From the NCBI RefSeq assembly GCF_013315695.1, contig NZ_CP054353.1: a DNA stretch of 64,000 nucleotides, one strand, 5' to 3'. The notes beneath the pieces are model-generated. The model did no database searches. It saw nothing but the letters and a program-made list of their open reading frames with translations, and had not been told where the DNA came from. Below are positions 1-38,801 of this stretch, one piece after another. Numbering within the stretch: the stretch's first letter is position 1; each line of letters starts with the position of its first letter. This DNA comes from Escherichia coli. GTDB taxonomy: Bacteria; Pseudomonadota; Gammaproteobacteria; Enterobacterales; Enterobacteriaceae. The position numbers and the translations under genes were made by a program.

Positions 1-635
1 TTCGTATGGGAACAGATCCTAACGTTTCGCAAAACCTTCCGTTCGGGGTGATGGATTCTCGTTTGATATTTCGTTTAAAGGTTATTCGTCCCTTTATTAA
101 CATGGTGGAGATCCCCAGACAGGTGATGTTTACCGTGTATGTGACATCAACGCCTAACGATCCGTTGGTTACACCTGTTTATACCATTAGTTTTGGTGGC
201 CGGGTTGAAGTACCGCAAAACTGCGAATTAAATGCCGGGCAAATTGTTGAATTTGATTTTGGTGATATCGGCGCATCGTTATTTAGTGCGGCAGGGCCGG
301 GGAATCGACCAGCTGGTGTCATGCCGCAAACCAAGAGCATTGCGATCAAATGTACGAATGTTGCTGCGCAGGCTTATTTAACAATGCGTCTGGAAGCCAG
401 TGCCGTTTCTGGTCAGGCGATGGTGTCGGACAATCAGGATTTAGGTTTTATTGTGGCCGATCAGAACGATACGCCGATCACGCCTAACGATCTCAATAGC
501 GTTATTCCTTTCCGTCTGGATGCAGCTGCGGCAGCCAATGTCACACTTCGCGCCTGGCCTATCAGTATTACCGGTCAAAAACCGACCGAAGGGCCGTTTA
601 GCGCGCTGGGGTATTTACGCGTCGATTATCAATGA
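1..635 (+). CDS. sfmH: fimbrial adhesin-like protein SfmH, C-terminal part (5' end outside window)
   Basis: Frame open from window edge to TGA at 633-635. Fimbrial-subunit-like C terminus (...FSALGYLRVDYQ). Synteny sfmH-sfmF-fimZ-argU as in E. coli K-12. Confidence 0.8.
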   Translation, partial: RMGTDPNVSQNLPFGVMDSRLIFRLKVIRPFINMVEIPRQVMFTVYVTSTPNDPLVTPVYTISFGGRVEVPQNCELNAGQIVEFDFGDIGASLFSAAGPGNRPAGVMPQTKSIAIKCTNVAAQAYLTMRLEASAVSGQAMVSDNQDLGFIVADQNDTPITPNDLNSVIPFRLDAAAAANVTLRAWPISITGQKPTEGPFSALGYLRVDYQ

Positions 636-645
636 GGTACGGAGA

Positions 646-1161
646 ATGAGAAGAGTACTCTTTAGCTGTTTCTGCGGGCTACTGTGGAGTTCCAGTGGAT
701 GGGCAGTTGACCCTTTAGGAACGATTAATATCAATTTGCACGGTAACGTTGTTGATTTCTCCTGTACCGTAAACACAGCGGATAAGGATAAGACGGTAGA
801 TTTAGGCAGATGGCCTACGACACAATTACTGAGCGCTGGCGATACCACGGCACTCGTCCCTTTTAGCCTGCGGCTGGAGGGATGTCCTCCGGGTTCAGTT
901 GCGATTTTATTTACGGGAACGCCGGCATCTGATGCCAACCTGCTGGCTCTGGATGATCCCGCAATGGCACAAACCGTCGCCATCGAATTACGTAATAGCG
1001 ATCGCTCCCGGCTCGCACTGGGGGAGGCGAGCTCGACTGAGGAAGTTGATGCAAATGGCAATGTCACACTAAACTTTTTTGCCAATTATCGAGCGTTAGC
1101 CAGCGGTGTTCAGCCTGGTGTGGCGAAAGCGGATGCGATATTTATGATCAATTATAATTAA
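646..1161 (+). CDS. sfmF: type-1-like fimbrial subunit SfmF
   Basis: ATG at 646 in frame with track ORF 451-1161, preceded by GGAG. Signal peptide MRRVLFSCFCGLLWSSSGWA and a fimbrial subunit-like body with a C-terminal beta-strand (ADAIFMINYN). Confidence 0.8.
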   Translation: MRRVLFSCFCGLLWSSSGWAVDPLGTININLHGNVVDFSCTVNTADKDKTVDLGRWPTTQLLSAGDTTALVPFSLRLEGCPPGSVAILFTGTPASDANLLALDDPAMAQTVAIELRNSDRSRLALGEASSTEEVDANGNVTLNFFANYRALASGVQPGVAKADAIFMINYN

Positions 1162-1163
1162 TA

Positions 1164-1796
1164 TTATATTAATTCATATAATTTGGCGTAGTCGATAAGC
1201 TCTACAATTGAATGCAAACCTAGCTTGCCATAAATATTAGATTTATGTGCACTAACTGTTTTATTGCTAAGTAATAACTTATCGGCAATTTCTTTATTAG
1301 ATAATCCGCTAACCAGATAACGTAATATGGTTACTTCACGATTAGATAGCACCGTGACCGTTGAACTATTCGTACTGCATTTATTGCTTTTTATATAGTT
1401 GAGCGTTTCGCTGGGAAAAAAAGTGTATCCGGAGAGGATCATCTGAACGGCATGAAAAATATCATTCTGATCATTGCATTTACTGACAAAACCGTTAGCA
1501 CCAGCTTGTACCGCTCTGCCAGCATAAAAGCATTCTGATTTCGATGATAAAAATAATACTTTCACTGTACTCTGGATTTGTTTGATCCTTTTCAGGAAGG
1601 TAAAACCGTCTGTTCCGGGCAAGTCTATATCCATAATGATTAAATCAACAGGACGGGTTCGGAGATAATCGATGGTTATGCGATAATCATCCGTTTTCAG
1701 GACAATTTGCAATTCATTGTTTTTTTGCAACAGAACTTCAATAGACATTCTGATGATAGGATGAGTATCCATAATGATCACCGACGTTGGTTTCAT
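1164..1796 (-). CDS. fimZ: LuxR/FixJ-family response regulator FimZ
   Basis: Track ORF 1164-1823. Start placed at internal Met (MKPTSVIIMDTHPIIR...) to give the 210-aa K-12 length. Receiver domain plus C-terminal LuxR HTH (LSNREVTILRYLVSGLSNKEIADKL). Confidence 0.9.
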   Translation of the reverse strand: MKPTSVIIMDTHPIIRMSIEVLLQKNNELQIVLKTDDYRITIDYLRTRPVDLIIMDIDLPGTDGFTFLKRIKQIQSTVKVLFLSSKSECFYAGRAVQAGANGFVSKCNDQNDIFHAVQMILSGYTFFPSETLNYIKSNKCSTNSSTVTVLSNREVTILRYLVSGLSNKEIADKLLLSNKTVSAHKSNIYGKLGLHSIVELIDYAKLYELI

Positions 1797-1978
1797 AGTT
1801 ACCAGTCTCATTGGATCGGACAATTTTCCGTTAGGGCGGGAAATTGTACTTGATACATGAAAATACGGGTTTTCTTGATTCAGACGCGCAGCGGTGTGCG
1901 TTTGTTTGCCGCTATAACGAAATAAATCAGAAAATCAGACGCGGTCGTTCACTTGTTCAGCAACCAGATCAAAAGCCA

Positions 1979-2006
1979 TTGACTCAGCAAGGGTTGACCG
2001 TATAAT
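1979..2006 (+). promoter_or_regulatory. candidate sigma70 promoter of argU
   Basis: TTGACT (1979-1984), 16-nt spacer, TATAAT (2001-2006), about 30 nt upstream of the mature tRNA 5' end. Confidence 0.55.
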
Positions 2007-2037
2007 TCACGCGATTACACCGCATTGCGGTATCAAC

Positions 2038-2114
2038 GCGCCCTTAGCTCAGTTGGATAGAGCAACGACCTTCTAAGTCGTGGGCCGCAGGTTCGAATCC
2101 TGCAGGGCGCGCCA
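2038..2114 (+). tRNA. argU: tRNA-Arg (anticodon UCU)
   Basis: 77-nt cloverleaf GCGCCCTTAGCTCAGTTGGATAGAGCAACGACCTTCTAAGTCGTGGGCCGCAGGTTCGAATCCTGCAGGGCGCGCCA. TCT anticodon in the CTTCTAA loop and an encoded CCA end. Confidence 0.95.
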
Positions 2115-2116
2115 TT
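2070..2116. repeat. prophage attL core (47-bp direct repeat, 3' part of argU)
   Basis: 2070-2116 is identical to 38755-38801. It is immediately followed by a tyrosine integrase gene. Confidence 0.9.
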
Positions 2117-2129
2117 ACAATTCAATCAG

Positions 2130-3293
2130 TTACGCCTTCTTTATATCCTCCATAATTCCACAGTGGGACATATTTGGGACATTATCACCAAAAATGTCGT
2201 CTATTTTCCTTGCATGCTCTGTCAAATGATTAGGCGCAAGGTGAGCATACCTACGAACCATTTCTATGGACTCCCATCCGCCCATTTCCTGAAGCACAGA
2301 TAATGGGACGCCTGACTGGATCAGCCAGCTTGCCCAGGTGTGTCTGAGGTCATGGAAACGGAAATCTTCAATTCCTGCACGACGACAAGCTGATAGCCAT
2401 GATGTCTTGCTGTCGATGCGCATCTTCCTGACCGCAGGCGTTGATGTTCCATCTGCTCGCTTAGTCGCCTTGGTATGTACAAACACCCATTTGTGATGCT
2501 TGCCTATTTGATCACGCAACACTTTACAGGCGGTATCGTTCAGCGCCACACCAATGGCGCGGTTTGATTTGCTCTCTTCTGGATTCACCCAGGCAACTCG
2601 TCGCTGCATGTCGATTTGTTGCCATTCCAGATTTATGATGTTCGACTTTCTCAGACCAGTTGCCAGCGCAAACTTGACGACAGATTTCAGTGGTTCGGGG
2701 CACTCATCAATAAGGCGTTTTGCTTCCTCCTTTTCCAGCCATCTGACTCGCTTGTTTCTGACCGCTGGTATCTTGATGACAGGCGCTTTTTCCAGCCACT
2801 TCCAGTCGCGTTCTGCAGCACGGAGAATGGCCTTTATCATGGCAAGATGCTTTGCCTTTGTCTGAGTTGATACTGGCTTTGGTTCATAAACAGGCGGTTC
2901 TTTACCTTTCCTGATGGCGGCCTGAACTTTCTGTTTCCATATTTCTTTCGTCTTTCTGTTATGCATTCTGCTTACAGCAGAGTAAATCTTTGCCTCCGAG
3001 ATATCTTTAAGCCTTATACCCTCAAAATGTTCAAGCCAGAACTCAATCCGGCTTTTATCTGAATCGAGAGATTTTTTATCAGCTTTTTCCTCAAGCCATC
3101 TTAGGCAGGCCTCTTCAAAAGTGACATCAGGTAAATCCCCTAGCTTTTCTACTCGCCAGAGTTCTGCTTTTCGCTTGTCGTGCAACTCCTGAGCTTGCCG
3201 CTTGTCCTTTGTGCCAAGAGATTCCTTAATTCGTTTCCCGCCCGGGAGCGAATACGAGGCATACCATATTTCATTTCTGCGGAAGAGTGACAT
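2130..3293 (-). CDS. intD: tyrosine-recombinase prophage integrase (DLP12 IntD type)
   Basis: 387-aa ORF adjacent to the tRNA att site. C-terminal catalytic motifs ([32 protein letters not shown]). Sequence recognised as DLP12 IntD. Confidence 0.95.
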
Positions 3294-3520
3294 TTTCTTT
3301 CCTCTGTTATGCCATCACCCGCGCTCACCTGGACAGTATGCAGCGGAGACTGAAGCGCCGCAATGCAAGCTTGCCGTGTTGTGAGGTAAGGAGATTTTGG
3401 CTTGGTTGGATCTTTACGTGTTGCCTGTAGGCGGCCTGTTCGTATCCAGTTGGTGGCGGTTGGTCTGGATATCTTAAGAAACTGACAGGCCTCATCGAGT
3501 GTGAGGCTGTATGGCTCCAT
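3149..3520 (-). CDS. xisD: excisionase-like HTH protein; 3' ~145 nt overlaps int in another frame, so the true C terminus is uncertain
   Basis: Internal Met of track ORF 3149-3604 ([31 protein letters not shown]), an excisionase-type helix-turn-helix. Position directly upstream of int. Confidence 0.55.
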
Positions 3521-3825
3521 TATTTCACCTCTTGCTGTGTCATTGTTGAAAAATGGATACCAGCTCGTTGCTGCCAGACGATCCAACCGAGAGTCATATC
3601 CCATGCCATGTATTCGTTATCGCCGTTTTTTACTCTCCGACGATCTACTAAGTCACCGAAACGCTTTTCCATGAATAATTCATAGGCTTCGCGTTCATCT
3701 GGCTCTACTTCCAGAGATACGAGTGCGATTTCATAAGCACGGCGCTCAATATCGTCTCGAACCTCTAGGCTGCTGATTCGTTCTTTGATTTCTTTAATCA
3801 GTTCTTTATTGGTAAATGTGGTCAT
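3520..3825 (-). CDS. hypothetical early-left prophage protein (101 aa, acidic)
   Basis: ORF packed end to end with its neighbours (its stop codon shares nucleotide 3520 with the xis start). No family recognised. Confidence 0.5.
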   Translation of the reverse strand: MTTFTNKELIKEIKERISSLEVRDDIERRAYEIALVSLEVEPDEREAYELFMEKRFGDLVDRRRVKNGDNEYMAWDMTLGWIVWQQRAGIHFSTMTQQEVK

Positions 3826-4187
3826 TATGCTCCAGCCTCCGGTGCTTTTGGCATTACTGCCCAGTGAGTGATATTGACGTTTTCAAGGTCCCCGACCTGA
3901 AATGTCCACTGCCATTCTCCGGTTTCTTTTTGTCCCCAGGTGTACCAGAGAGAACGCCAGCCAATCAGCCAGCCTTCTCCATTAGCATCAAATAACAGAA
4001 CACTTTCATTTGCTGGTGGCAGTTCAGCTGACACTGGTATTATTTTGTTTTCCAGTGCCGCACATTTAGCTTCAAGCGCGTCGAATTTACGTAACAGGTA
4101 CTCAGCATTTGTTTCATTCACTTTCAGATCTCGCGGTACACATTTCCCGCGAAGAAACCCTTCCATTTCGAAAACATTCATGCGCAT
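3825..4187 (-). CDS. DUF551-like prophage protein
   Basis: 120-aa ORF with a Trp-rich C-terminal half (GWLIGWRSLWYTWGQKETGEWQW...ITHWAVMP), typical of DUF551 proteins in lambdoid early-left operons. It shares nucleotide 3825 with the start of the downstream gene. Confidence 0.6.
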   Translation of the reverse strand: MRMNVFEMEGFLRGKCVPRDLKVNETNAEYLLRKFDALEAKCAALENKIIPVSAELPPANESVLLFDANGEGWLIGWRSLWYTWGQKETGEWQWTFQVGDLENVNITHWAVMPKAPEAGA

Positions 4188-4714
4188 TTGCGTAACTCCG
4201 ATAAATCGTTAAAACGTTCCATAAACATCCCGTAGGCATGACCCGGTGCCAGTGGAATCACGTTGAACATCTCTGTTGCCGGGATGCCTTCCAGTACAGG
4301 CCAGAAAGAGCCATCATCAAGCCCGAGATCGCGGCGTTCGGTTGCCAGCATGATGAGATCGGCATATTTCACGGGTGTACTCATAACTGGGGGTAACCCG
4401 TATTTCTCACGGATTACGGCGTCTATTTTTTCTTCCATCCGTTTATAGTCAGGAAGAAGGCGTTTCAGTGGTGCGGGAATGTCCTGGCAATACGCTTCTG
4501 TTGCATCATGCATTAACGCTTCAAAAGCAAATTCCTGCGGCACCAGCTGGCTGCAAAGAACCGCATGTTGGGCGACGCTGTAGAAGTGCGAAAGATGACC
4601 GGCAAAGCGACAGATATTTGAAAGGGAAACCGCGATATCGTTAATATCGATGTCGTCTTTATTTATCTTGTCATAATAAAAATGCTTCCCGGAAAAAGTT
4701 TTAATAAATGACAT
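4178..4714 (-). CDS. HD-domain phosphohydrolase (YfbR-like 5'-nucleotidase family)
   Basis: Track ORF 4178-4741. Start moved to MSFIKTF (ATG 4714), which has GGAGAAC upstream. H...HD metal-binding signature (SVAQHAVL...ALMHDATEAY). Confidence 0.7.
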   Translation of the reverse strand: MSFIKTFSGKHFYYDKINKDDIDINDIAVSLSNICRFAGHLSHFYSVAQHAVLCSQLVPQEFAFEALMHDATEAYCQDIPAPLKRLLPDYKRMEEKIDAVIREKYGLPPVMSTPVKYADLIMLATERRDLGLDDGSFWPVLEGIPATEMFNVIPLAPGHAYGMFMERFNDLSELRKCA

Positions 4715-4841
4715 TTTGTTCTCCACGTATATGCACTGCACCGCGCTGAATTCTGGTAAAAGGAAGCCCTCACCATCCGGTGATTATTGAGTTAATTACG
4801 TTTCCATAAATGCCCCCGCAGGGGCATTTGCAGTAATGAAA

Positions 4842-5041
4842 TCAGGCGGTGAAAGTACCAATAAAGGTTTCTACTTTGCTGTCTTTGAATTTCTCAACAA
4901 GCAGATCACGAAATTCGTTAGCCATTTCTTCCTGCACCGCTTCCAGCTGAATAATGCGCAGAACCAGTACAGGACGATCGCCAGTGATAATGCTGAGGCG
5001 TAATTTAAACGGACGTTCTTTCAGACCTTCAAACGGAACGC
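4842..5041 (-). pseudogene. 3' fragment of an unidentified prophage early gene, truncated by IS1
   Basis: Minus-strand frame reads ...[65 protein letters not shown] with its stop at 4842-4844. The frame runs straight into the IS1 left end at 5042. Confidence 0.4.
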
Positions 5042-5096
5042 GGTGATGCTGCCAACTTACTGATTTAGTGTATGATGGTGTTTTTGAGGTGCTCCA

Positions 5097-5372
5097 GTGG
5101 CTTCTGTTTCTATCAGCTGTCCCTCCTGTTCAGCTACTGACGGGGTGGTGCGTAACGGCAAAAGCACCGCCGGACATCAGCGCTATCTCTGCTCTCACTG
5201 CCGTAAAACATGGCAACTGCAGTTCACTTACACCGCTTCTCAACCCGGTACGCACCAGAAAATCATTGATATGGCCATGAATGGCGTTGGATGCCGGGCA
5301 ACAGCCCGCATTATGGGCGTTGGCCTCAACACGATTTTACGTCACTTAAAAAACTCAGGCCGCAGTCGGTAA
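5097..5372 (+). CDS. insA: IS1 InsA
   Basis: 91-aa [33 protein letters not shown]... identical in form to IS1 InsA. Confidence 0.9.
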
Positions 5373-5794
5373 CCTCGCGCATACAGCCGGGCAGTGACGT
5401 CATCGTCTGCGCGGAAATGGACGAACAGTGGGGCTATGTCGGGGCTAAATCGCGCCAGCGCTGGCTGTTTTACGCGTATGACAGGCTCCGGAAGACGGTT
5501 GTTGCGCACGTATTCGGTGAACGCACTATGGCGACGCTGGGGCGTCTTATGAGCCTGCTGTCACCCTTTGACGTGGTGATATGGATGACGGATGGCTGGC
5601 CGCTGTATGAATCCCGCCTGAAGGGAAAGCTGCACGTAATCAGCAAGCGATATACGCAGCGAATTGAGCGGCATAACCTGAATCTGAGGCAGCACCTGGC
5701 ACGGCTGGGACGGAAGTCGCTGTCGTTCTCAAAATCGGTGGAGCTGCATGACAAAGTCATCGGGCATTATCTGAACATAAAACACTATCAATAA
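5291..5794 (+). CDS. insB: IS1 InsB frame (transposase InsAB' made by -1 frameshift at the A6C motif near 5348-5354)
   Basis: 167-aa ORF overlapping insA in the -1 frame. The TTAAAAAACTC slippery run lies in the overlap. Confidence 0.9.
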
Positions 5795-5844
5795 GTTGGA
5801 GTCATTACCTTCTAATTGATATGCAATTGTTTACTAAAAGTTAT

Positions 5845-5869
5845 TAAAAATGGGGCGTGGAAACGCCCC
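5845..5869 (-). terminator. candidate rho-independent terminator (minus strand, downstream of nmpC)
   Basis: GGGGCGT-GGAA-ACGCCCC hairpin (5852-5869). On the minus strand it is followed by ATTTTTAATAA. Confidence 0.45.
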
Positions 5870-5956
5870 CAAAATAAAGGGTAATATATAACAGAAGGTT
5901 TATATAGTAAGAAGCAAGGTAGTGCTTCTAAAGGAAGTGGCTTGAGGGCTCCACTT

Positions 5957-5997
5957 ATATGTTGCGGAGGCAAAGCCTCCCGCAACATATCTTTTTC
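5957..5997 (+). terminator. strong hairpin with plus-strand T-tract facing the 3' end of nmpC
   Basis: ATATGTTGCGGAGGC-AAA-GCCTCCCGCAACATAT (15-16 bp stem with one bulge) followed by CTTTTTCG. It lies 18 nt from the nmpC stop. Confidence 0.5.
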
Positions 5998-6007
5998 GTA
6001 AGTCAGA

Positions 6008-7090
6008 TTAGAACTGATAAACCAGACCTACAGCGACGATGTCGTCGGTATCAATACCAGCTGTTTTGGTAAACTTACTATCGTCAATTAAGTTGATTTT
6101 GTAATCAACAAAAGTGGACATGTTTTTATTAAAGTAGTAAGTAGCACCGACATCGACATACTTGACTAAGTCTCGGTCACCATGAACACCAAGGTCTTTA
6201 CCTTTTGACTGAAGGTAAGCAACAGATGGACGCAGACCGAAGTCAAACTGATATTGTGCTACTGCTTCAAAGTTTTGTGCTTTGTTTGCAATATGGTTAT
6301 TACCAAAAACGGTCATATTCTGAGTTTCAGAATATGTGGTAGCCAGATAGATATTGTTCGCATCATATTTCAGGCCTGCAGCCCATACTTCCGCATTTTT
6401 GCCGGAGGCATTGAATTTGCTCTTACCATAGGCGACCTGACCGTCAGTGCGATCTGATTTAGCATAGGTTGCACCCACGCCGAATCCTTCATACTCATAA
6501 GTAGTGGAGAAACCGAAACCATCACCATTGGCTTCAGTTACGTCAGTGCGGTCATTTTTACCCTGATACTGAGCAGCAAAGTTCAGGCCATCGACCAGAC
6601 CAAAGAAGTCGTTGTTACGATAAGTTGCAACACCAGTAGTGCGACCAGTCATGAACACATCTGTTTGGGTCCAGGTATCACCACCGAATTCTGGCAGGAC
6701 GTCAGTCCACGCACCGATGTCGTATGCTACACCGTAGTTACGGCCGTAATCGATTGAGCCGTAATCACCAAATTTCAGGCCTGCAAATGCAAGACGGGTT
6801 TTGTCTTTGGAAGAACCTTGAGATTCAGCACGGTTGCCTTTGAATTCATATTCCCACTGACCGAAACCAGTCAGTTGATCGTTGATTTGGGTTTCACCTT
6901 TGAAGCCAAGACGGGCATAAGTAGTATCACCATCATCTGCATCATTAGAGGAGAAGTAGTGCTTGGCATTAACTTTCCCGTATAGATCCAGCTTGTTACT
7001 GTCTTTATTATAAATTTCAGCTGCCTGAGCAGACATCGCCATCAGTACTGATGCAGCTACAGCAGAAATTGCCACTGTTAATTTTTTCAT
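6008..7090 (-). CDS. nmpC: OmpC/OmpF-family general porin NmpC (intact)
   Basis: Track ORF 6008-7150. Start placed at [23 protein letters not shown] (signal peptide). Porin hallmarks [16 protein letters not shown] and C-terminal ...VAVGLVYQF. Confidence 0.9.
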
Positions 7091-7458
7091 TGTACGCCCT
7101 TTTTTTGAACTATTATTAAAAAATGATGTCACTGCGCGATAAATATTCATCTAATCAATGCGATTATTTCAAGATGTAAGTTTTAGTTTCTCATTTAATT
7201 TGTGAAGTAGATCTCTATTTTTATCTAAACCTTTTCTATCTAATCCTATTCATGGCTCTTGTTTGAACGAAAATAAATCTATTAGCTAATTTATATTAAT
7301 GGCACTTATTTATAAGCGATCTATAATTCTTTAGCTTAATTTAAACAAGCTAAAAATAACATCGGAAATTATTCATTGGTTATTTGTTGAAGTTTTCTTA
7401 TGTATTTGTGGTGGTGTTTTGAACACTCGGTGGCATTCTCACAAATATCATTTAGTAG

Positions 7459-7486
7459 TTTACGTACGTAAAAAATTGGTTATGCT
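7459..7486 (+). promoter_or_regulatory. candidate late (pR'-like) promoter
   Basis: TTTACG (7459-7464), 16-nt spacer, TATGCT (7481-7486). It is followed about 30 nt later by a strong terminator, and the holin gene starts at 7679. The layout resembles lambdoid pR'-tR'. Confidence 0.3.
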
Positions 7487-7516
7487 GTTAAGAGTGGTTA
7501 CTTCGTCACACAGCTT

Positions 7517-7549
7517 AAACCCGCCGTCGAGCGGGTTTTTCCATTTTTT
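7517..7549 (+). terminator. rho-independent terminator upstream of the lysis cassette (tR'-like)
   Basis: AAACCCGC-CGTCGA-GCGGGTTT hairpin followed by TTTTTCCATTTTTT. Confidence 0.65.
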
Positions 7550-7678
7550 GAGTCTCGATATTAGCTGATAACCCAATACCTGAGTTATTCACTGACTCCG
7601 AATCTGTTACGTTTCTGCCTTTATTGCGATACGTAGTATCCCCTTAATTTACACCCGCTTTGTCTGCGAGGTGGGGTT

Positions 7679-7894
7679 ATGAAATCCATGGATAAGTTAA
7701 CAACGGGTGTCGCCTATGGCACCTCAGCAGGTAGTGCCGGATACTGGTTTTTACAGCTGCTAGATAAAGTCACGCCCTCACAGTGGGCGGCAATTGGAGT
7801 GCTGGGTAGCCTGGTATTTGGCCTGCTGACGTACCTGACAAACCTTTATTTCAAGATTAAAGAAGATAAGCGCAAGGCTGCGAGAGGTGGATAA
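7679..7894 (+). CDS. essD: phage-21-type class II holin (pinholin) with dual-start motif
   Basis: 71 aa, two TM segments, N terminus MKSM (Met1/Met4 antiholin-holin dual start), charged C terminus [13 protein letters not shown]. Recognised as an EssD/S21 homologue. Confidence 0.9.
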
Positions 7895-8391
7895 TGCCTC
7901 CATCATTACGAAAAGCTGTTGCTGCTGCTATTGGTGGCGGGGCTATTGCTATAGCATCTGTGTTAATCACTGGCCCAAGTGGTAACGATGGTCTGGAAGG
8001 TGTGAGACATAATCCTTACAAAGACATAGTTGGTGTATGGACTGTATGTTACGGGCATACAGGAAAAGACATCATTCCCGGTAAAACGTATACCGAAGCA
8101 GAGTGCAAAGCCCTCCTGAATAAAGACCTTGCCACTGTCGCCAGACAAATTAACCCGTACATCAAAGTCGATATACCGGAAACAACGCGCGGCGCTCTTT
8201 ACTCGTTCGTCTACAACGTGGGTGCTGGCAATTTCAGAACATCGACGCTTCTTCGCAAAATCAACCAGGGCGATATCAAAGGCGCATGTGACCAGCTACG
8301 TCGCTGGACATACGCTGGCGGTAAGCAATGGAAAGGGCTGATGACTCGCCGTGAGATTGAGCGTGAAGTCTGTTTGTGGGGGCAGCAATGA
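7894..8391 (+). CDS. rrrD: SAR endolysin (T4-lysozyme family, R21/RrrD type)
   Basis: 165 aa. N-terminal Gly/Ala-rich signal-arrest-release segment ([20 protein letters not shown]) and GH24 catalytic region [24 protein letters not shown]. Its ATG begins at the last base of the holin stop codon (TAATG). Confidence 0.9.
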
Positions 8392-8825
8392 GCAGGTTAA
8401 CCGCGATTATCTCCGCTCTGGTTATCTGCATCATCGTCTGTCTGTCATGGGCTGTTAATCATTACCGTGATAACGCCATTACCTATAAAGAACAGCGCGA
8501 TAAAGCCACGTACATCATCGCTGACATGCAGAAGCGTCAACGTGACGTAGCAGAACTCGATGCCAGATATACAAAGGAGCTTGCTGATGCTAACGCGACT
8601 ATCGAAAGTCTCCGTGCTGATGTTTCTGCTGGGCGTAAGCGCCTGCAAGTCGCCGCCACCTGTGCAAAGTCAACGACCGGAGCCAGCGGCATGGGCGATG
8701 GAGAAAGCCCAGGACTTACAGCAGATGCTGAACTCAATTATTACCGTCTCCGAAGTGGAATCGACAAGATAACCGCGCAGGTTAACTACCTGCAGGAATA
8801 CATCAGGACGCAATGCCTGAAATAA
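8388..8825 (+). CDS. rzpD: i-spanin Rz
   Basis: Start [21 protein letters not shown] (N-terminal TM) as an ATGA overlap with the endolysin stop. Coiled-coil periplasmic domain. Confidence 0.85.
8587..8772 (+). CDS. rzoD: o-spanin Rz1 lipoprotein, embedded in the +1 frame of Rz
   Basis: Internal Met of track ORF 8560-8772. Lipobox LLGVSAC followed by a Pro-rich mature region ([13 protein letters not shown]). Confidence 0.75.
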
Positions 8826-8856
8826 TTTTTTTGCAAATCACAAAGTCAATTTAATG

Positions 8857-8880
8857 AGCCTCGCGATGCGGGGCTTTTTG
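8857..8880 (+). terminator. rho-independent terminator after the lysis cassette
   Basis: AGCCTCGC-GAT-GCGGGGCT stem-loop followed by TTTTTG. Confidence 0.6.
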
Positions 8881-8886
8881 CAATAA

Positions 8887-8911
8887 ATGCGTACCGCAAC
8901 GCATGTTTTTT
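8887..8911 (+). terminator. second tandem terminator-like hairpin
   Basis: ATGCGT-ACCGCA-ACGCAT followed by GTTTTTT. Confidence 0.45.
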
Positions 8912-9026
8912 ACACCGAACCTGCCCCTTTGGAATGGGCCTTTGAGGATACCAGTTAGTGCTGGCGAGCCTCGGTGGGCTGGTTTCCTGTGCGGCAAAGG
9001 TTCATTTCAAAGAGTAGGTACACGCT

Positions 9027-9524
9027 ATGAAATCATTAACCCTCTTCAATCAACCAATTCGTATCGGTGAAGATGGCATGATCTGCCTCACTGATATGTG
9101 GAAAGCCAGTGGTAAAAGTGAATCTGAATCGCCTTACCACTACCTGCGAAACAAGCAGACCAAAGAGTTCTTAGCCGAGCTGGAGAAAAACCACGAATCT
9201 GTGGTTTTTACTGAGCGCGGTGTACACGGTGGAACATATGGCGGGAAGTTTGTTGCTTACGATTATGCGGCTTGGTTAAACCCCGGGTTCAAGTACGCGG
9301 CCTATAAAGTCCTCGATGACTACTTCACCGGAGAACTTCAGCATCGCAACAGCTTAAGTGCGCAGCTCAACATGAAATGTCATGAGTTTGACCAGAAGAA
9401 AGACATGGCGAGCTTCTGCGGACAAGGGCTGGCAGCATGGCGCTATACGAAGCCAGTGTTGGTCGCTGAGATTAACTCCCTGGCTAACCAGCTGCAGATT
9501 ACGATCCCCGGGCTTCCGGGATGA
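9027..9524 (+). CDS. KilA-N domain protein
   Basis: 165-aa ORF. The N-terminal ~100 aa resemble the KilA-N DNA-binding domain (IRIGEDGMICLTDMWKASGK...GGTYGGKFVAYDYAAWLNPGF). GTAGGT lies upstream of the ATG. Confidence 0.65.
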   Translation: MKSLTLFNQPIRIGEDGMICLTDMWKASGKSESESPYHYLRNKQTKEFLAELEKNHESVVFTERGVHGGTYGGKFVAYDYAAWLNPGFKYAAYKVLDDYFTGELQHRNSLSAQLNMKCHEFDQKKDMASFCGQGLAAWRYTKPVLVAEINSLANQLQITIPGLPG

Positions 9525-9778
9525 GTGATCGTGTTATTGAATGCGCCTCCAGAGCGGGGCGCGACTTCTCAGAGTTCATGAAAGGCGAGAAGGGCATGAT
9601 GGAAGCATTGGCCTCGGTGGATGAGTTTGGCGAGCAGCTGCGCCTCAACGGCTGTGTCAATCATCACTTTGTTAGCTACATGATGCGGAACTCGATCATG
9701 CAGGCATTCATGGACATGGCAAAAGCCGAGAGGAAAGAAGAGCGCCGGCGTAAGCGAGCGGAAGCAAAAGCGAAGTAG
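9521..9778 (+). CDS. hypothetical 85-aa protein with a highly basic C terminus
   Basis: ATGA start/stop overlap with the KilA-N gene. C-terminal KAERKEERRRKRAEAKAK. No family recognised. Confidence 0.45.
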   Translation: MSDRVIECASRAGRDFSEFMKGEKGMMEALASVDEFGEQLRLNGCVNHHFVSYMMRNSIMQAFMDMAKAERKEERRRKRAEAKAK

Positions 9779-9854
9779 CCATTACAAAGCCTATCTACGG
9801 GTGGGCTTGATAATGGCTTATACCCTACACGGGATAACTTAACTGATATCCCTT

Positions 9855-10019
9855 TTAAAGGATAAAGGTATTCAAGCCTGACACATCATGCGCTGTATCG
9901 TCGCCGTGTTCCCGTATTAACAGAGACCGTAGCCCGACGGGGAACTCCTTCTGCGCGAGTGTGCGGGAATAATCAAAAACGATGCACACCGGGGTTACCG
10001 GGTACACATATTTCATCAT
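9855..10019 (-). CDS. possible 54-aa small ORF (below the ORF-track cut-off)
   Basis: Hand translation gives MMKYVYPVTPVCIVFDYSRTLAQKEFPVGLRSLLIREHGDDTAHDVSGLNTFIL*. It lies just downstream of the ybcV remnant on the same strand. No clear RBS. Confidence 0.25.
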   Translation of the reverse strand: MMKYVYPVTPVCIVFDYSRTLAQKEFPVGLRSLLIREHGDDTAHDVSGLNTFIL

Positions 10020-10064
10020 GCCAGCGAGTCCGGTTCTGGCACGGAAGAAACCGGACGTTATGAT

Positions 10065-10476
10065 TTAGTGCGGAAATATTTGTGTAGTGTTCTGAATGTT
10101 CTCAGTAAAGAGTAATGAATTATCAAAGGTATAGTAATACCTTTTGTTTTCGTGGATATTTGTAATCCATCTGAAAACCCCTGCTGTAGCAAGATTTTTC
10201 CTGTATTCGTAAAATGATAACTCTCCTGATTTGAATCCTTTTAAGGTGGCTTCTATAAGGCATTTATTTTTTTGAAAATCTTACATTTACAACCTTACCC
10301 TGTCCTTTTATTAAAACCGTATTATCGTTTTCAAGAACAAGATGAATATTCTCTGTGGCTAAATAGTAAATGTAATGTGAGACATTGTGACGTTTTAGTT
10401 CAGAATAAAACCAGTGATAGTTTAAATTATTTCGCACTTTATCGAATATTTGTTTAAAAATGGCAACCTGAGCCAT
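10065..10476 (-). pseudogene. ybcV: ybcV-like DUF1398 gene disrupted by a frameshift in an A7 run
   Basis: Track ORF 10264-10491 ([45 protein letters not shown]...) stops right after the A7 run (10267-10273). The rest (..[65 protein letters not shown]) continues in the +1 frame to 10065. Confidence 0.7.
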
Positions 10477-10533
10477 TGTAGTACCTTCCATGTGATATGA
10501 GGGGGCGTAGTCTGCACGATTATCTAGATTGCT

Positions 10534-10767
10534 TCAATCTGGTCTAACCTGTTTTCTGAGCAATTCAGTAATGTCACTCTTTTCTTTGTTTGCTTCAGGC
10601 GAAACTCTTTTTTCTGAGCACAGTCTCCGGCGGCAGGCTTCAATGACCCAGGCTGAGAAATTCCCGGACCCTTTTTGAACAAGAGCGATGTTAATTTGTT
10701 CAATCATTTGGTTAGGAAAGCGGATGTTGCGGGTTGTTGTTCTGCGGGTTCTGTTCTTCGTTGACAT
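10534..10767 (-). CDS. ylcI: DUF3950-like small protein (YlcI type)
   Basis: 77-aa ORF MSTKNRTRRTTTRNIRFPNQMIEQINIAL...SAWVIEACRRRL, recognised as the DLP12 YlcI family. It sits next to cos, as in lambda's right end. Confidence 0.65.
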   Translation of the reverse strand: MSTKNRTRRTTTRNIRFPNQMIEQINIALVQKGSGNFSAWVIEACRRRLCSEKRVSPEANKEKSDITELLRKQVRPD

Positions 10768-10934
10768 GAGGTTGCCCTGTATTCAGTGTCGCTGATTTGT
10801 ATTGTCTGAAGTTGTTTTTACGTTAAGTTGATGCAGATCAATTAATACGATACCTGCGTCATAATTGATTATTTGACGTGGTTTGATGGCGTAGATGCAC
10901 GTTGTGACATGTAGATGATAATTATTATCATTTT

Positions 10935-11140
10935 TCGGGTCCTTTCCGGCGATCCGACAGGTTACGGGGCGGCGACCTCGCGGGTTTTCGCTATTTATGA
11001 AAATTTTCCGGTTTAAGGCGTTTCCGTTCTTCTTCGTCGTAACTTAATGTTTTTATTTAAAATACCCCCTGAAAAGAAAGGAAACGACAGGTGCTGAAAG
11101 CGAGCTTTTTGGCCTCTGTCGTTTCCTTTCTCTGTTTTTG
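10935..11140 (+). other. cos site (cosQ-cosN-cosB); 12-nt cohesive-end sequence GGGCGGCGACCT at 10967-10978
   Basis: ...CCGACAGGTTACG|GGGCGGCGACCTCGCGGGTTTTCGCTATTTATGAAAATTTTCCGG... matches my memory of the joined lambda ends apart from a few substitutions and one 1-bp deletion. It lies directly upstream of Nu1. Confidence 0.85.
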
Positions 11141-11155
11141 TCCGTGGAATGAGCA

Positions 11156-11675
11156 ATGGAAGTCAACAAAAAGCAGCTGGCTGACATTTTCGGTGCGAGT
11201 ATCCGTACCATTCAGAACTGGCAGGAACAGGGAATGCCCGTTCTGCGAGGCGGTGGCAAGGGTAATGAGGTGCTTTATGACTCTGCCGCCGTCATAAAAT
11301 GGTATGCCGAAAGGGATGCTGAAATTGAGAACGAAAAGCTGCGCCGGGAGGTTGAAGAACTGCGGCAGGCCAGCGAGGCAGATCTCCAGCCAGGGACTAT
11401 TGAGTACGAACGCCACCGACTTACGCGTGCGCAGGCCGACGCACAGGAACTGAAGAATGCCAGAGACTCCGCTGAAGTGGTGGAAACCGCATTCTGTACT
11501 TTCGTGTTGTCGCGGATCGCAGGTGAAATTGCCAGTATTCTCGACGGGATCCCCCTGTCGGTGCAGCGGCGTTTTCCGGAACTGGAAAACCGACATGTTG
11601 ATTTCCTGAAACGGGATATCATCAAAGCCATGAACAAAGCAGCCGCGCTGGATGAACTGATACCGGGGTTGCTGA

Positions 11676-11701
<26 letters not shown>
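11156..11701 (+). CDS. nu1: terminase small subunit Nu1
   Basis: 181 aa MEVNKKQLADIFGASIRTIQNWQEQGMPV... (winged HTH). Lambda gpNu1 length and sequence. Confidence 0.95.
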
Positions 11702-15382
<3,681 letters not shown>

Positions 15383-15402
<20 letters not shown>

Positions 15403-16702
15403 TCTCCCGCATATTACCAGTATGGCCTTTAATGAGCCGCTGATGCTTGAACCCGCCTATGCGCGGGTTTTCTTTTGTGCGCTTGCAGGCCAGCTTGGGA
15501 TCAGCCGCCTGACGGATGCGGTATCCGGCGACAGCCTGACTGCCGGAGAGGCACCCGCGGCGCTGGCGTTATCCGTTGATGATGACGGACCACGGCAGGC
15601 CCGCAGTTATCAGGTCATGAACGGCATCGCCGTGCTGCCGGTGTCCGGCACGCTGGTCAGCCGGACGCGGGCGCTGCAGCCGTATTCGGGGATGACCGGT
15701 TACAACGGCATTATCGCCCGTCTGCAACAGGCTGCCAGCGACCCGATGGTGGACGGCATTCTGCTCGATATGGATACGCCAGGCGGGATGGTGGCAGGGG
15801 CATTTGACTGCGCTGACATCATCGCCCGTGTGCGTGACATAAAGCCGGTATGGGCGCTGGCCAATGACATGAACTGCAGCGCAGGTCAGCTGCTTGCCAG
15901 TGCCGCCTCCCGGCGTCTGGTCACGCAGACCGCCCGGACAGGCTCCATCGGCGTCATGATGGCTCACAGTAATTACGGTGCTGCGCTGGAGAAACAGGGC
16001 GTGGAAATCACGCTGATTTACAGCGGCAGCCATAAGGTGGATGGCAACCCCTACAGCCATCTTCCGGATGACGTCCGGGAGACACTGCAGTCCCGGATGG
16101 ATGCAACCCGCCGGATGTTTGCGCAGAAGGTGTCGGCATATACCGGCCTGTCCGTGCAGGCTGTGCTGGATACCGAGGCTGCAGTGTACAGCGGTCAGGA
16201 GGCCATTGATGCCGGACTGGCTGATGAACTTGTTAACAGCACCGATGCGATCACCGTCATGCGTGATGCACTGGATGCACGTAAATCCCGTCTCTCAGGA
16301 GGGCGAATGACCAAAGAGACTCAATCAACAACTGTTTCAGCCACCGCTTCGCAGGCTGACGTTACTGACGTGGTGCAAGCGACGGAGGGCGAAAACGCCA
16401 GCGCGGCGCAGCCGGACGTGAACACGCAGATCACCGCAGCGGTTGCGGCAGAAAACAGCCGCATTATGGGGATCCTCAACTGTGAGGAGGCTCACGGACG
16501 CGAAGAACAGGCGCGCGTGCTGGCAGAAACCCCCGGAATGACCGTGGAAACGGCCCGCCGCATTCTGGCCGCAGCACCACAGAGTGCACAGGCGCGCAGT
16601 GACACTGCGCTGGATCGTCTGATGCAGGGTGCACCGGCACCACTGGCTGCAGGTAACCCGGCATCTGATGCCGTTAACGATTTGCTGAACACACCAGTGT
16701 AA
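15383..16702 (+). CDS. C: head maturation protease / scaffold protein C (GTG start)
   Basis: GTG at 15383 in frame of track ORF 15248-16702 gives (V)TAELRNLPHITSMAFNEP..., 439 aa as lambda gpC. ClpP/S49-like protease fold. Confidence 0.9.
16097..16702 (+). CDS. nu3: scaffolding protein Nu3 (in-frame internal start within C)
   Basis: ATG at 16097 (..SRMDATRR..) corresponds to the lambda Nu3 start. It shares the frame and stop of C. Confidence 0.7.
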   Translation: MDATRRMFAQKVSAYTGLSVQAVLDTEAAVYSGQEAIDAGLADELVNSTDAITVMRDALDARKSRLSGGRMTKETQSTTVSATASQADVTDVVQATEGENASAAQPDVNTQITAAVAAENSRIMGILNCEEAHGREEQARVLAETPGMTVETARRILAAAPQSAQARSDTALDRLMQGAPAPLAAGNPASDAVNDLLNTPV

Positions 16703-16711
16703 GGGATGTTT

Positions 16712-17044
16712 ATGACGAGCAAAGAAACCTTTACCCATTACCAGCCGCTGGGCAACAGTGACCCGGCTCATACCGCAACCGCGCCCGGCGGATTGAGTGC
16801 GAAAGCGCCTGCAATGACTCCGCTGATGCTTGACACCGCCACCCGTAAGCTGGTTGCGTGGGATGGCACCACCGACGGTGCTGCCGTTGGCATTCTGGCT
16901 GTTGCAGCTGACCAGACCAGCACCACGCTGACGTTCTACAAGTCCGGCACGTTCCGTTATGAGGATGTGCTCTGGCCGGAGGCTGCCAGCGACGAGACGA
17001 AAAAACGGACCGCGTTTGCCGGAACGGCAATCAGCATCGTTTAA
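16712..17044 (+). CDS. D: head decoration protein D
   Basis: [27 protein letters not shown]..., 110 aa (second Met of track ORF 16706-17044). Confidence 0.9.
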
Positions 17045-17061
17045 CTTTACCCTTCATCACT

Positions 17062-17086
17062 AAAGGCCGCCTGTGCGGCTTTTTTT
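17062..17086 (+). terminator. terminator-like hairpin between D and E
   Basis: GCCGC-CTGT-GCGGC stem extended by A/T pairs, followed by T7. Confidence 0.45.
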
Positions 17087-17099
17087 ACGGGATTTTTTT

Positions 17100-18125
17100 A
17101 TGTCGATGTACACAACCGCCCAGCTGCTGGCGGCAAATGAGCAGAAATTTAAGTTTGATCCGCTGTTTCTGCGTCTCTTTTTCCGTGAGAGCTATCCCTT
17201 CACCACGGAGAAAGTCTATCTCTCACAAATTCCGGGACTGGTAAACATGGCGCTGTACGTTTCGCCGATTGTTTCCGGTGAGGTTATCCGCTCCCGTGGC
17301 GGCTCCACCTCTGAATTTACACCGGGATATGTCAAGCCGAAGCATGAGGTGAATCCGCAGATGACCCTGCGTCGCCTGCCGGATGAAGATCCGCAGAATC
17401 TGGCGGACCCGGCTTACCGCCGCCGTCGCATCATCATGCAGAACATGCGTGACGAAGAGCTGGCCATTGCTCAGGTCGAAGAGATGCAGGCCGTTTCTGC
17501 CGTGCTTAAGGGCAAATACACCATGACCGGTGAAGCCTTCGATCCGGTTGAGGTGGATATGGGCCGCAGTGCGGCGAATAACATCACGCAGTCCGGCGGC
17601 ACGGAGTGGAGCAAGCGTGACAAGTCCACGTATGACCCGACCGACGATATCGAAGCCTACGCGCTGAACGCCAGCGGTGTGGTGAATATCATCGTGTTTG
17701 ATCCGAAAGGCTGGGCGCTGTTCCGTTCCTTCAAAGCCGTCAGGGAGAAGCTGGATACCCGTCGTGGCTCTCATTCCGAGCTGGAGACAGCGGTAAAAGA
17801 CCTGGGTAAAGCGGTGTCCTATAAGGGTATGTATGGCGATGTTGCCATCGTCGTGTATTCCGGACAGTACGTGGAAAACGGCGTCAAAAAGAACTTCCTG
17901 CCGGACAACACGATGGTGCTGGGGAACACTCAGGCACGCGGTCTGCGCACCTATGGTTGTATTCAGGATGCGGACGCACAGCGCGAAGGCATTAACGCCT
18001 CTGCCCGTTACCCGAAAAACTGGGTGACCACCGGCGATCCGGCACGTGAGTTCACCATGATTCAGTCAGCACCGCTGATGCTGCTGGCTGACCCTGATGA
18101 GTTCGTGTCCGTACAACTGGCGTAA
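17100..18125 (+). CDS. E: major capsid protein E
   Basis: MSMYTTAQLLAANEQKFKFDPLFLR..., 341 aa (internal Met of track ORF 17073-18125). Confidence 0.95.
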   Translation: MSMYTTAQLLAANEQKFKFDPLFLRLFFRESYPFTTEKVYLSQIPGLVNMALYVSPIVSGEVIRSRGGSTSEFTPGYVKPKHEVNPQMTLRRLPDEDPQNLADPAYRRRRIIMQNMRDEELAIAQVEEMQAVSAVLKGKYTMTGEAFDPVEVDMGRSAANNITQSGGTEWSKRDKSTYDPTDDIEAYALNASGVVNIIVFDPKGWALFRSFKAVREKLDTRRGSHSELETAVKDLGKAVSYKGMYGDVAIVVYSGQYVENGVKKNFLPDNTMVLGNTQARGLRTYGCIQDADAQREGINASARYPKNWVTTGDPAREFTMIQSAPLMLLADPDEFVSVQLA

Positions 18126-18166
18126 TCATGGCCCTTCGGGGCCATTGTCTCTCTGTGGAGAAGTCC

Positions 18167-18562
18167 ATGACGAAAGATGAACTGATTGCCCGTCTCCGCT
18201 CGCTGGGTGAACAACTGAACCGTGATGTCAGCCTGACGGGGACGAAAGAAGAACTGGCGCTCCGTGTGGCAGAGCTGGAAGAAGAGCTTGATGACACGGG
18301 CGACACTGCCGGTCAGGATACCCCTCTCAGCCCGGAAAATGTGCTGACCGGACATGAAAATGAGGTTGTATCAGCGCAGCCGGATACCGTGACTGATACG
18401 GCTGATCTGGTCACGGTTGTGGCACTGGTGACGCTGCATACTGATGCACTTCACGCCACGCGGGATGAGGCTGTGGCATTTGTGCTGCCGGGAACGGCGT
18501 TCCGTGTCTCTGCCGGTGTGGCAGCTGAAATGACAGAGCGCGGCCTGGCCAGAATGCAATAA
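18167..18562 (+). CDS. FI: DNA-packaging/head assembly protein FI
   Basis: MTKDELIARLRSLGEQLNRDVSLTG..., 131 aa (lambda gpFI is 132 as I recall). The middle region is more diverged than its neighbours. Confidence 0.85.
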   Translation: MTKDELIARLRSLGEQLNRDVSLTGTKEELALRVAELEEELDDTGDTAGQDTPLSPENVLTGHENEVVSAQPDTVTDTADLVTVVALVTLHTDALHATRDEAVAFVLPGTAFRVSAGVAAEMTERGLARMQ

Positions 18563-18573
18563 CGGGAGGCGCT

Positions 18574-18927
18574 GTGGCTGATTTCGATAACCTGTTCGAT
18601 GCTGCCATTGCCTGCGCCGATGAAACGATACGCGGGTACATGGGAACGTCAGCCACCATGACATCCGGTGAGCAGTCCGGTGCTGTGATACGTGGTGTTT
18701 TTGATGACCCTGAAAATATCAGCTATGCCGGACAGGGCGTGCGCGTTGAAGGCTCCAGCCCGTCCCTGTTTGTCCGGACTGATGATGTGCGGCAACTGCG
18801 GCGTGGAGACACGCTGACCATCGGTGAGGAAAACTTCTGGATAGATCGTGTTTCGCCGGATGATGGCGGAAGCTGTCATCTCTGGCTTGGGCGGGGCGTA
18901 CCGCCTGCCGTTAACCGTCGCCGCTGA
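18574..18927 (+). CDS. FII: head-tail connector protein FII
   Basis: 117 aa MADFDNLFDAAIACADETIRGYMG... Confidence 0.9.
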   Translation: MADFDNLFDAAIACADETIRGYMGTSATMTSGEQSGAVIRGVFDDPENISYAGQGVRVEGSSPSLFVRTDDVRQLRRGDTLTIGEENFWIDRVSPDDGGSCHLWLGRGVPPAVNRRR

Positions 18928-18938
18928 AAGGGGGATGT

Positions 18939-19517
18939 ATGGCCATAAAAGGTCTTGAGCAGGCCGTTGAAAACCTCAGCCGTATCAGCAAAACGGCGGT
19001 TCCCGGTGCCGCCGCAATGGCCATTAACCGCGTTGCGTCATCCGCGATATCGCAGTCGGCGTCACAGGTTGCCCGTGAGACAAAGGTACGCCGGAAACTG
19101 GTAAAGGAAAGGGCCAGGCTGAAAAGGGCCACGGTCAAAAATCCGCAGGCCAGAATCAAAGTTAACCGGGGGGATTTGCCCGTAATCAAGCTGGGTAATG
19201 CGCGGGTTGTCCTGTCCCGCCGCAGGCGTCGTAAAAAGGGGCAGCGTTCATCCCTGAAAGGTGGCGGCAGCGTGCTTGTGGTGGGTAACCGTCGTATTCC
19301 CGGCGCGTTTATTCAGCAACTGAAAAATGGCCGGTGGCATGTTATGCAGCGTGTGGCCGGGAAAAACCGTTACCCCATTGATGTGGTGAAAATCCCGATG
19401 GCGGTGCCGCTGACCACGGCGTTTAAACAGAATATTGAACGGATACGGCGTGAACGTCTTCCGAAAGAGCTGGGCTATGCGCTGCAGCATCAACTGAGAA
19501 TGGTAATAAAGCGATGA
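18939..19517 (+). CDS. Z: tail completion protein Z
   Basis: 192 aa, the lambda gpZ length and sequence. Confidence 0.9.
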   Translation: MAIKGLEQAVENLSRISKTAVPGAAAMAINRVASSAISQSASQVARETKVRRKLVKERARLKRATVKNPQARIKVNRGDLPVIKLGNARVVLSRRRRRKKGQRSSLKGGGSVLVVGNRRIPGAFIQQLKNGRWHVMQRVAGKNRYPIDVVKIPMAVPLTTAFKQNIERIRRERLPKELGYALQHQLRMVIKR

Positions 19518-19909
19518 AACATACTGAACTCCGTGCAGCCGTACTGGATGCACTGGAGAAGCATGACACCGGGGCGACGCTTTTTGATGGTCGCCCCGCT
19601 GTTTTTGATGAGGAAGATTTTCCGGCAATTGCCGTTTATCTCACCGGCGCTGAATACACGGGCGAAGAGCTGGACAGCGATACCTGGCAGGCGGAGCTGC
19701 ATATTGAAGTTTTCCTGCCTGCTCAGGTGCCGGATTCAGAGCTGGATTCGTGGATGGAGTCCCGGATTTATCCGGTGATGAGCGATATCCCGGCACTGTC
19801 AGATTTGATCACCAGTATGGTGGCCAGTGGCTATGACTACCGGCGCGACGATGATGCGGGCCTGTGGAGTTCAGCCGATCTGACTTATGTCATTACCTAT
19901 GAAATGTGA
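19514..19909 (+). CDS. U: tail terminator protein U
   Basis: 131 aa. ATGA overlap with Z. Confidence 0.9.
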
Positions 19910-19916
19910 GGACGCT

Positions 19917-20657: not shown

Positions 20658-20672
20658 TCCGGAGAGTCAGCG

Positions 20673-38754: not shown

Positions 38755-38801
38755 CTTCTAAGTCGTGGGCCGCAGGTTCGAATCCTGCAGGGCGCGCCAT
38801 T
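38755..38801. repeat. prophage attR core (47-bp copy of the argU 3' part)
   Basis: CTTCTAAGTCGTGGGCCGCAGGTTCGAATCCTGCAGGGCGCGCCATT is identical to 2070-2116. The upstream tRNA half is absent, so this is not a functional tRNA. Confidence 0.9.

Follow-up and report, generated by a model that had tools for sequence, protein, structure and literature searches.

In E. coli K-12, the defective lambdoid prophage DLP12 lies at argU. It has lost its morphogenesis genes and kept quuD. Reif and Saedler reportedly described IS1-mediated deletions in the gal region in 1975. IS1 produces target duplications of 8 or 9 bp and transposes mainly replicatively within the chromosome (PMC12428005). The same source cites Turlan and Chandler (1995, EMBO J 14:5410) for replicative deletions by IS1. 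Adjacent deletions and recombination between IS copies are the usual reasons for missing duplications (PMC11708052). Adjacent deletions by IS150 were described in the E. coli long-term evolution experiment, where an insertion with a duplication was followed by a deletion that removed it (PMC11708052).

The locus described here is a DLP12-type prophage of E. coli MSB1_4I (NZ_LR898874.1), to which the window, the entire stretch of 64,000 nucleotides that was analysed, is 100% identical. Its history very probably comprised two steps, an IS1 insertion into yfdQ followed by an IS1 adjacent deletion. This is the same history as in the IS150 cases. Those cases involved an element of the IS3/IS150 family and a frozen time series, whereas the element here is IS1 and the precursor was seen in a related clinical isolate (PMC11708052).

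The argU prophage and its retained genes

The integration site is a tRNA-Arg gene (anticodon tct; argU) at 2038..2114 on the plus strand, detected with ARAGORN and annotated beside intD. The ends of the element are marked by an exact 47-bp direct repeat. Its attL copy (2070..2116) forms the 3' part of argU, and its attR copy (38755..38801) lies at the right end. From attL to attR, the integrated element spans approximately 36.7 kb, and past the tail-fibre genes it includes ompT and a gene for an alpha/beta hydrolase. Integration at tRNA-Arg(tct), the adjoining intD and the att direct repeats place the prophage in the DLP12 type.

The integrase gene intD (2130..3293, minus strand; Pfam Phage_integrase, E 5.7e-47; PGAP) is followed in the annotation by a helix-turn-helix remnant, yfdT, a yfdS-like gene, yfdR, a yfdQ fragment, IS1 and a porin gene. 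The retained early-left genes yfdT, yfdS-like and yfdR, the last one encoding a 5'-deoxynucleotidase, occupy 3520..4714 on the minus strand (PGAP; Pfam DUF551 and YfbR-like). Past the porin gene, essD, rrrD, an Rz-like gene and a KilA-N gene were annotated, followed by the terminase, portal, head and tail genes. The lysis cassette with the essD holin, the rrrD lysozyme and the Rz-like lysis protein comprises 7679..8825 on the plus strand (Pfam Phage_holin_2_1 and Phage_lysozyme; PGAP). The late gene order of the DLP12 type, with quuD, a porin gene on the opposite strand, holin, lysozyme and Rz, was found as well. It is complete in the relatives AF3 and ST3, and quuD is reduced to 10 nt in the window. 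No repressor, replication protein or antiterminator was annotated in the window according to the source record and, for the rest of the window, the AF3 record.

The prophage shares with DLP12 the site, the integrase, the quuD-porin-essD-rrrD layout and a decay by insertion sequences and deletion. It differs in keeping a full set of head and tail genes and early genes of the yfd/ymf type. The decay events of the two prophages are independent.

Two further observations concern small defects in this prophage. Between int and yfdT, 66 nt (3455-3520, minus strand) are annotated as what remains of a helix-turn-helix gene that may have been xis-like. Since AF3, ST3 and KSC9 share this remnant, a normal excisionase may be missing from the undeleted relatives too. 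The DUF1398 gene at 10066-10477 on the minus strand was annotated as frameshifted in MSB1_4I and is intact in AF3. The frameshift adds a further small step of decay in this prophage.

IS1 in yfdQ and the three states of the site

The intact IS1 of IS1A type extends over 5042..5809 (768 bp, plus strand), with insA and insAB' read from left to right, as established by direct reading, PGAP and a script. It starts with GGTGATGCTGCC and ends with GAGTCATTACC, and its length of about 768 bp with the imperfect terminal inverted repeats GGTGATGCTGCCAACTTACTGAT ... ATCAATAAGTTGGAGTCATTACC is that of IS1. The insA gene (5097-5372) encodes 91 aa and leads into insB' via a -1 frameshift at the A6C motif at position 5348. 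PGAP labelled 5042-5809 as an intact IS1A family transposase with programmed frameshift. Compared with four IS1A-type copies of other strains, the identity was 99.5-99.9%, and 96.5% to a fifth, more divergent IS1 copy. No second IS1 end was found in the 64-kb window, where the left inverted repeat is unique.

On the left side, a minus-strand frame stops at the IS1 boundary, which cuts the gene in mid-codon. The translation of 4842-5039 matched the DUF2303 (YfdQ) profile of Pfam at positions 209-269 of 269 only. This fragment (4842..5041, minus strand) is the 3' part of yfdQ (DUF2303), comprising the C-terminal 66 of 274 codons, and the full-length yfdQ in ST3 measures 825 nt. On the right side, 198 bp of DNA of non-coding appearance precede the minus-strand stop codon of a gene for a porin of 360 aa. 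The first 10 nt of these (5810..5819, plus strand) are the end of the Q antiterminator gene quuD including its TGA stop codon. The other 374 nt are deleted, as quuD covers 14990-15373 in the AF3 locus and the right flank begins at 15364. The spacer of 188 bp between quuD and the porin gene (5820..6007), which contains two hairpins, is kept. The porin gene itself (nmpC/ompC-like; 6008..7090, minus strand) is intact (Pfam Porin_1, E 1.9e-151; 'porin OmpC' in PGAP). A sequence-only reading of the window had described an early gene truncated mid-frame on the left and a right flank entering the region downstream of nmpC. Both descriptions held, with the additions that the left gene is yfdQ, of which the C-terminal quarter is left, and that 10 nt of quuD survive at the right junction.

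Within the spacer, the hairpin at 5852-5869 is GC-rich and scored as a minus-strand terminator. A second GC-rich hairpin at approximately 5957-5996 abuts the porin stop codon and carries a plus-strand T-run. This second hairpin may terminate transcription in both directions, or it may be the Q-responsive terminator of the late operon. A simple scan of 5810-6007 detected no consensus sigma-70 or late promoter.

The 9-mers beside IS1 are ACGGAACGC on the left (5033..5041) and TTCTAATTG on the right (5810..5818), with one occurrence each in the window. They do not form a direct target-site duplication of 8 or 9 bp. Direct reading and the script thereby agreed with the earlier description of an intact IS1 at 5042-5809 with unlike flanking 9-mers. 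The missing duplication does not count against the element being IS1, because the same copy has a perfect 9-bp duplication in AF3, so that the duplication was once present and later lost.

The two IS1 flanks were searched separately in 5,426 complete E. coli genomes. MSB1_4I alone among them had the IS1 junction of the window. Several genomes matched both flanks at 99.8-100%, with the flanks approximately 9.3-11 kb apart. In the IS1-free ST3, LS992166 and KK19-02, both flanks matched at 99.8-100% and were separated by exactly 9,331 bp, the 9,340 bp less the 9-bp duplicate. The check proposed in the sequence-only reading, whether the flanks are contiguous in IS1-free relatives, thus had a negative answer.

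Three states of the site were distinguished. In ST3 (NZ_CP121087.1), the site is empty, yfdQ is intact with 825 nt, and ACGGAACGC is present once, with TTCTAATTG 9,331 bp further on. The isolate AF3 (NZ_OZ547117.1), the closest relative, has the same prophage with an IS1 that agrees to the nucleotide in position and also in orientation, and the script found ACGGAACGC on both sides. The window retains the left copy of ACGGAACGC from the original IS1 target at 5033..5041 and carries TTCTAATTG on the right. The aligned site sequences read ...caaACGGAACGCattt... in ST3, ...caaACGGAACGC-IS1-ACGGAACGCattt... in AF3 and ...caaACGGAACGC-IS1-TTCTAATTGatat... in the window. The 9-mer TTCTAATTG at 5810..5818 marks the distal endpoint of the deletion and is the putative intramolecular target site. 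AF3 and ST3 each have it once in the corresponding position, within a 40-bp stretch of 17% G+C.

A BLAST comparison of the window with 74 kb of AF3 gave an alignment in two collinear blocks, with 99.97% identity over 1-5809 and 99.83% over 5810-64000. The sole structural difference across 64 kb was that the window lacks AF3 locus 6024-15363 (9,340 bp), which follows IS1 directly on its right side. The deletion sets in precisely where IS1 ends, with the alignment break at 5809/5810 and the right flank starting at AF3 locus 15364, and it left IS1 and the other flank unchanged. As expected of a precursor of an adjacent deletion, AF3 agrees with the window in the position and orientation of this IS and still has the full duplication together with the neighbouring DNA. 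The IS1 copies of the window and AF3 differ by one base at position 401, which is G in the window and A in AF3. Four IS1 copies of other strains have G at this position, so that A is private to AF3. The two copies have 262A in common, which is absent from those four. The shared 262A and the single private difference at position 401 argue for descent of both copies from one insertion.

Over 58 kb, the window and AF3 showed 100 differences, 85 of which were located in window 14-21 kb. Outside this patch, there was approximately one base difference per several kb. By these counts, MSB1_4I and AF3 are close relatives, not clones. We infer, rather than observe, that the window state descends from the AF3 state, the strains being close but non-clonal. 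The patch at 14000-21000 covers the portal, protease and capsid region and has the appearance of a recombined segment within the head-gene module.

The sequence-only reading had held that IS1 did not arrive by simple insertion. AF3 contradicts this with an IS1 at the same site and a perfect ACGGAACGC duplication, which was apparently lost later with the adjacent deletion. A different question is whether IS1 inserted into a prophage that was already deleted, with its duplication degraded later. Relatives of the KSC9 type provide such a background, with both flanks approximately 0.9 kb apart without an IS and an older yfdQ-DUF968 deletion. In at least 17 genomes of this type, yfdQ runs into the final 95 bp of the DUF968 gene, no IS is present and quuD is kept. 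The deletion comprises approximately 8.4 kb (AF3 locus 6458-14877), and the KSC9 blocks 10234-10667 and 10662-13397 overlap by 6 nt (microhomology). However, the KSC9-type junction lies at AF3 locus 6457/14878 and not at the window endpoints, and quuD is still there. The right flank of this type was approximately 90.5% identical to AF3 and 93.5% overall to the window region, whereas AF3, ST3 and others reached 99.8-100% on both flanks. The two 9-mers have no resemblance that would fit a decayed repeat, and AF3 has the intact duplication at the very same site. The chance of an insertion into an already-deleted prophage is negligible, and the aligned sequences refute a simple insertion with a decayed duplication.

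The KSC9-type deletion is a separate event in a more divergent lineage, and not the ancestor of the window state. It removed nearly the same early, immunity and replication block as the window deletion, from inside yfdQ to inside the DUF968 gene. The KSC9 type has no IS and retained quuD, whereas the window deletion was IS1-mediated and reduced quuD to 10 nt. A large deletion older than IS1, with IS1 removing only approximately 0.9 kb, was also considered and rejected, as the KSC9 endpoints differ, the lineage is more divergent and the closer relatives contradict it.

The deleted segment and the probable route of its loss

The lost segment includes the 5' three-quarters of yfdQ, yfdP and all but the last 10 nt of quuD. 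In AF3, the gene order is yfdQ fragment, IS1, the rest of yfdQ, yfdP, two hypothetical genes, a ymfK-type LexA-family gene, ymfT and ymfL. These are followed by genes for DUF4222, a helix-turn-helix protein of 313 aa, PerC, a Dam methylase and a small LexA-domain protein, and then by RusA, KilA-N, DUF968, quuD and the porin gene. The divergently transcribed protein of 224 aa matched Pfam Peptidase_S24 and is a repressor of CI/LexA type. The protein of 66 aa opposite the repressor is YdaS/Cro-like, below the Pfam gathering threshold. YmfL matched phage CII (CP76) of Pfam, and QuuD matched Phage_antitermQ with an E value of 6.7e-54. The 313-aa protein matched HTH_36 and is a possible replication or regulatory protein. 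Pfam matches were also obtained for the PerC, LexA_DNA_bind and DUF968 proteins of the segment. With all 15 segment products as queries, tblastn against the window gave one match, a KilA-N paralogue at 9084-9317 with 31% identity.

The gene content of AF3 bears on the claims made from the window alone. The deletion of an immunity and antitermination region was confirmed, as the immunity, early-right and antitermination genes of AF3 are gone. The suggestion of 10-15 kb of early genes between the flanks in relatives was right about their nature, including a repressor, Cro-like and CII-like genes and quuD, but the deleted length is 9,340 bp. The reported absence of exo/bet/gam, N, cI/cro, O/P, nin and Q homologues from the window was accurate in that none of the repressor, Cro, CII and Q genes of the segment are left. 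However, lambda-type exo/bet/gam, N, O/P and nin are missing from the intact relative as well. None of them was annotated in AF3, and the deletion is therefore not the cause of their absence. The early genes of the undeleted phage do not resemble those of lambda and comprise yfdP-T, ymfK/T/L, PerC, DUF968 and quuD modules.

The 9.3-kb segment was present at a coverage of at least 80% in 366 genomes. MSB1_4I was absent among the best 60 of these, all with at least 85% coverage. The reciprocal junctions of IS1-ACGGAACGC-yfdQ 5' part and of quuD-TTCTAATTG-IS1 were likewise without MSB1_4I among the matches listed. The deleted DNA and both reciprocal junctions are accordingly absent elsewhere in the genome, among the matches listed. 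Since MSB1_4I has neither the segment nor these junctions among the matches listed, the segment appears to have been lost and not moved, which within these matches rules out an inversion or translocation between IS1 copies.

An assembly artefact would give the same picture if two direct IS1 copies with 9.3 kb between them had collapsed to one. IS copies are classic collapse points and MSB1_4I is rich in IS1. The record is, however, a closed and complete chromosome, and after a collapse the interior normally turns up as a piece of its own, but the 9.3-kb segment was not found at high coverage in the assembly. It would also need a second IS1 at quuD, which was not observed. A collapse is thus highly improbable.

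A real second IS1 in direct orientation, inserted at TTCTAATTG near the end of quuD, would permit RecA-dependent recombination between the two copies, removing the interval and one IS1. The product would be identical, as the first insertion would contribute its left half-site and the second its right half-site. Missing duplications are known to arise in this way (PMC11708052). MSB1_4I has at least 40 places matching IS1, and IS1 insertions are scattered over the prophage family in other strains. Against it, no IS1 was found at the quuD site in any of the 5,426 genomes, and AF3 has no second IS1 copy at quuD. The IS1 of the window also showed no mosaic pattern compared with the AF3 copy, which is a weak test, and the route costs one event more than a replicative deletion. 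Recombination between two IS1 copies is therefore unlikely, although of some weight.

The two-step history would have begun with an ordinary IS1 transposition into yfdQ of a lambdoid, DLP12-type argU prophage, by which the 9-bp target ACGGAACGC was duplicated. In the MSB1_4I lineage, the right end (IRR) of the same IS1 would then have joined the AT-rich TTCTAATTG at a distance of 9.3 kb, with only the final 10 nt of quuD beyond the joining point. The intervening 9,340 bp, including the right duplication copy, would have been lost. The chemistry would be a one-step intramolecular replicative transposition from IRR into TTCTAATTG ('replicative deletion'), with the excised DNA released as a circle that includes a second IS1 copy and does not replicate. 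This one-step route is favoured as the probable one and takes the larger part of our overall confidence. An untouched IS with one untouched flank, a start at the last base of the IS, the loss of one duplication copy and an AT-rich distal end are those of a classical IS1 adjacent deletion. The sequence-only reading had proposed an IS1-mediated adjacent deletion or IS1-IS1 recombination as the origin of a prophage without regulators. This proposal was supported, with corrections to the size, the order of events and the gene content.

The case resembles the laboratory IS1 adjacent deletions reported by Reif and Saedler and by Turlan and Chandler. In both, the IS remains beside one of its original flanks, the deleted stretch runs from precisely the IS terminus to a new site, a single copy of the original 9-bp duplication disappears and the distal endpoint is AT-rich. 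In mechanism, nothing sets the present case apart. It is natural and was rebuilt from three genomes, and the one-step route is its probable course. The mechanism is well described and already known, and the instance is strain-specific and adds no new biology.

IS1 copies at other positions were observed in further strains of the prophage family, in rrrD, the porin-essD spacer, the porin gene, other yfdQ sites and the int-yfdR region. Examples in the loci of relatives are L004 10292-11059 and L005 9426-10193. The prophage family is a frequent target of IS1. AF14, BEN2908 and AGR5151 were considered as precursors with IS1 at the right-hand site and rejected, as these are unrelated insertions, located in rrrD or across the porin gene from that site. 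HCP4S3_I4, the only one-piece match for an IS1 at the quuD target, was also rejected. Its prophage is unrelated, and the IS1 in it follows another Q gene at a distance of 20 bp (locus L007 6186-6206). It is a second case of IS1 in an AT-rich stretch just past a Q gene.

Predicted consequences for the prophage

The element keeps int, the porin gene and the lysis, terminase, head and tail genes. It is without the repressor of LexA/S24 type, the Cro-like and CII-like regulators, the early promoter-operator region, the early-right genes and Q. Because the repressor, the early promoter-operator region, the early-right genes and Q are lost, the prophage is predicted to be non-inducible and unable to maintain immunity, to replicate or to switch on its late operon by itself. 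The joint loss of the repressor and the lytic regulators is presumably viable, and a loss of the repressor alone presumably would not be. This need for viability may explain why the window and KSC9-type deletions both span the whole block.

Two independent deletions removed almost the same interval from the repressor to DUF968 and spared the porin and lysis genes, which raises the idea that loss of the early block is selected and recurrent. The complete virion gene set and the spacer downstream of quuD are kept, so that the late operon would in principle be open to activation in trans by a QuuD-type antiterminator. The element would then be a helper-dependent, satellite-like element, and the activator would come from another resident or infecting lambdoid phage. 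This reading is speculative and considered improbable.

Sequenced isolates preserve all three states, from the empty site through the insertion flanked by its duplication to the deletion derivative, which makes this a clean natural case. It traces base by base the loss of regulatory genes from a lambdoid prophage that looks complete, and is useful for teaching. For prophage annotation, a tool that counts structural genes could score the element as intact despite its having no repressor, recognisable replication gene or Q. The prophage of MSB1_4I is an ordinary example of mobile elements disabling prophages.
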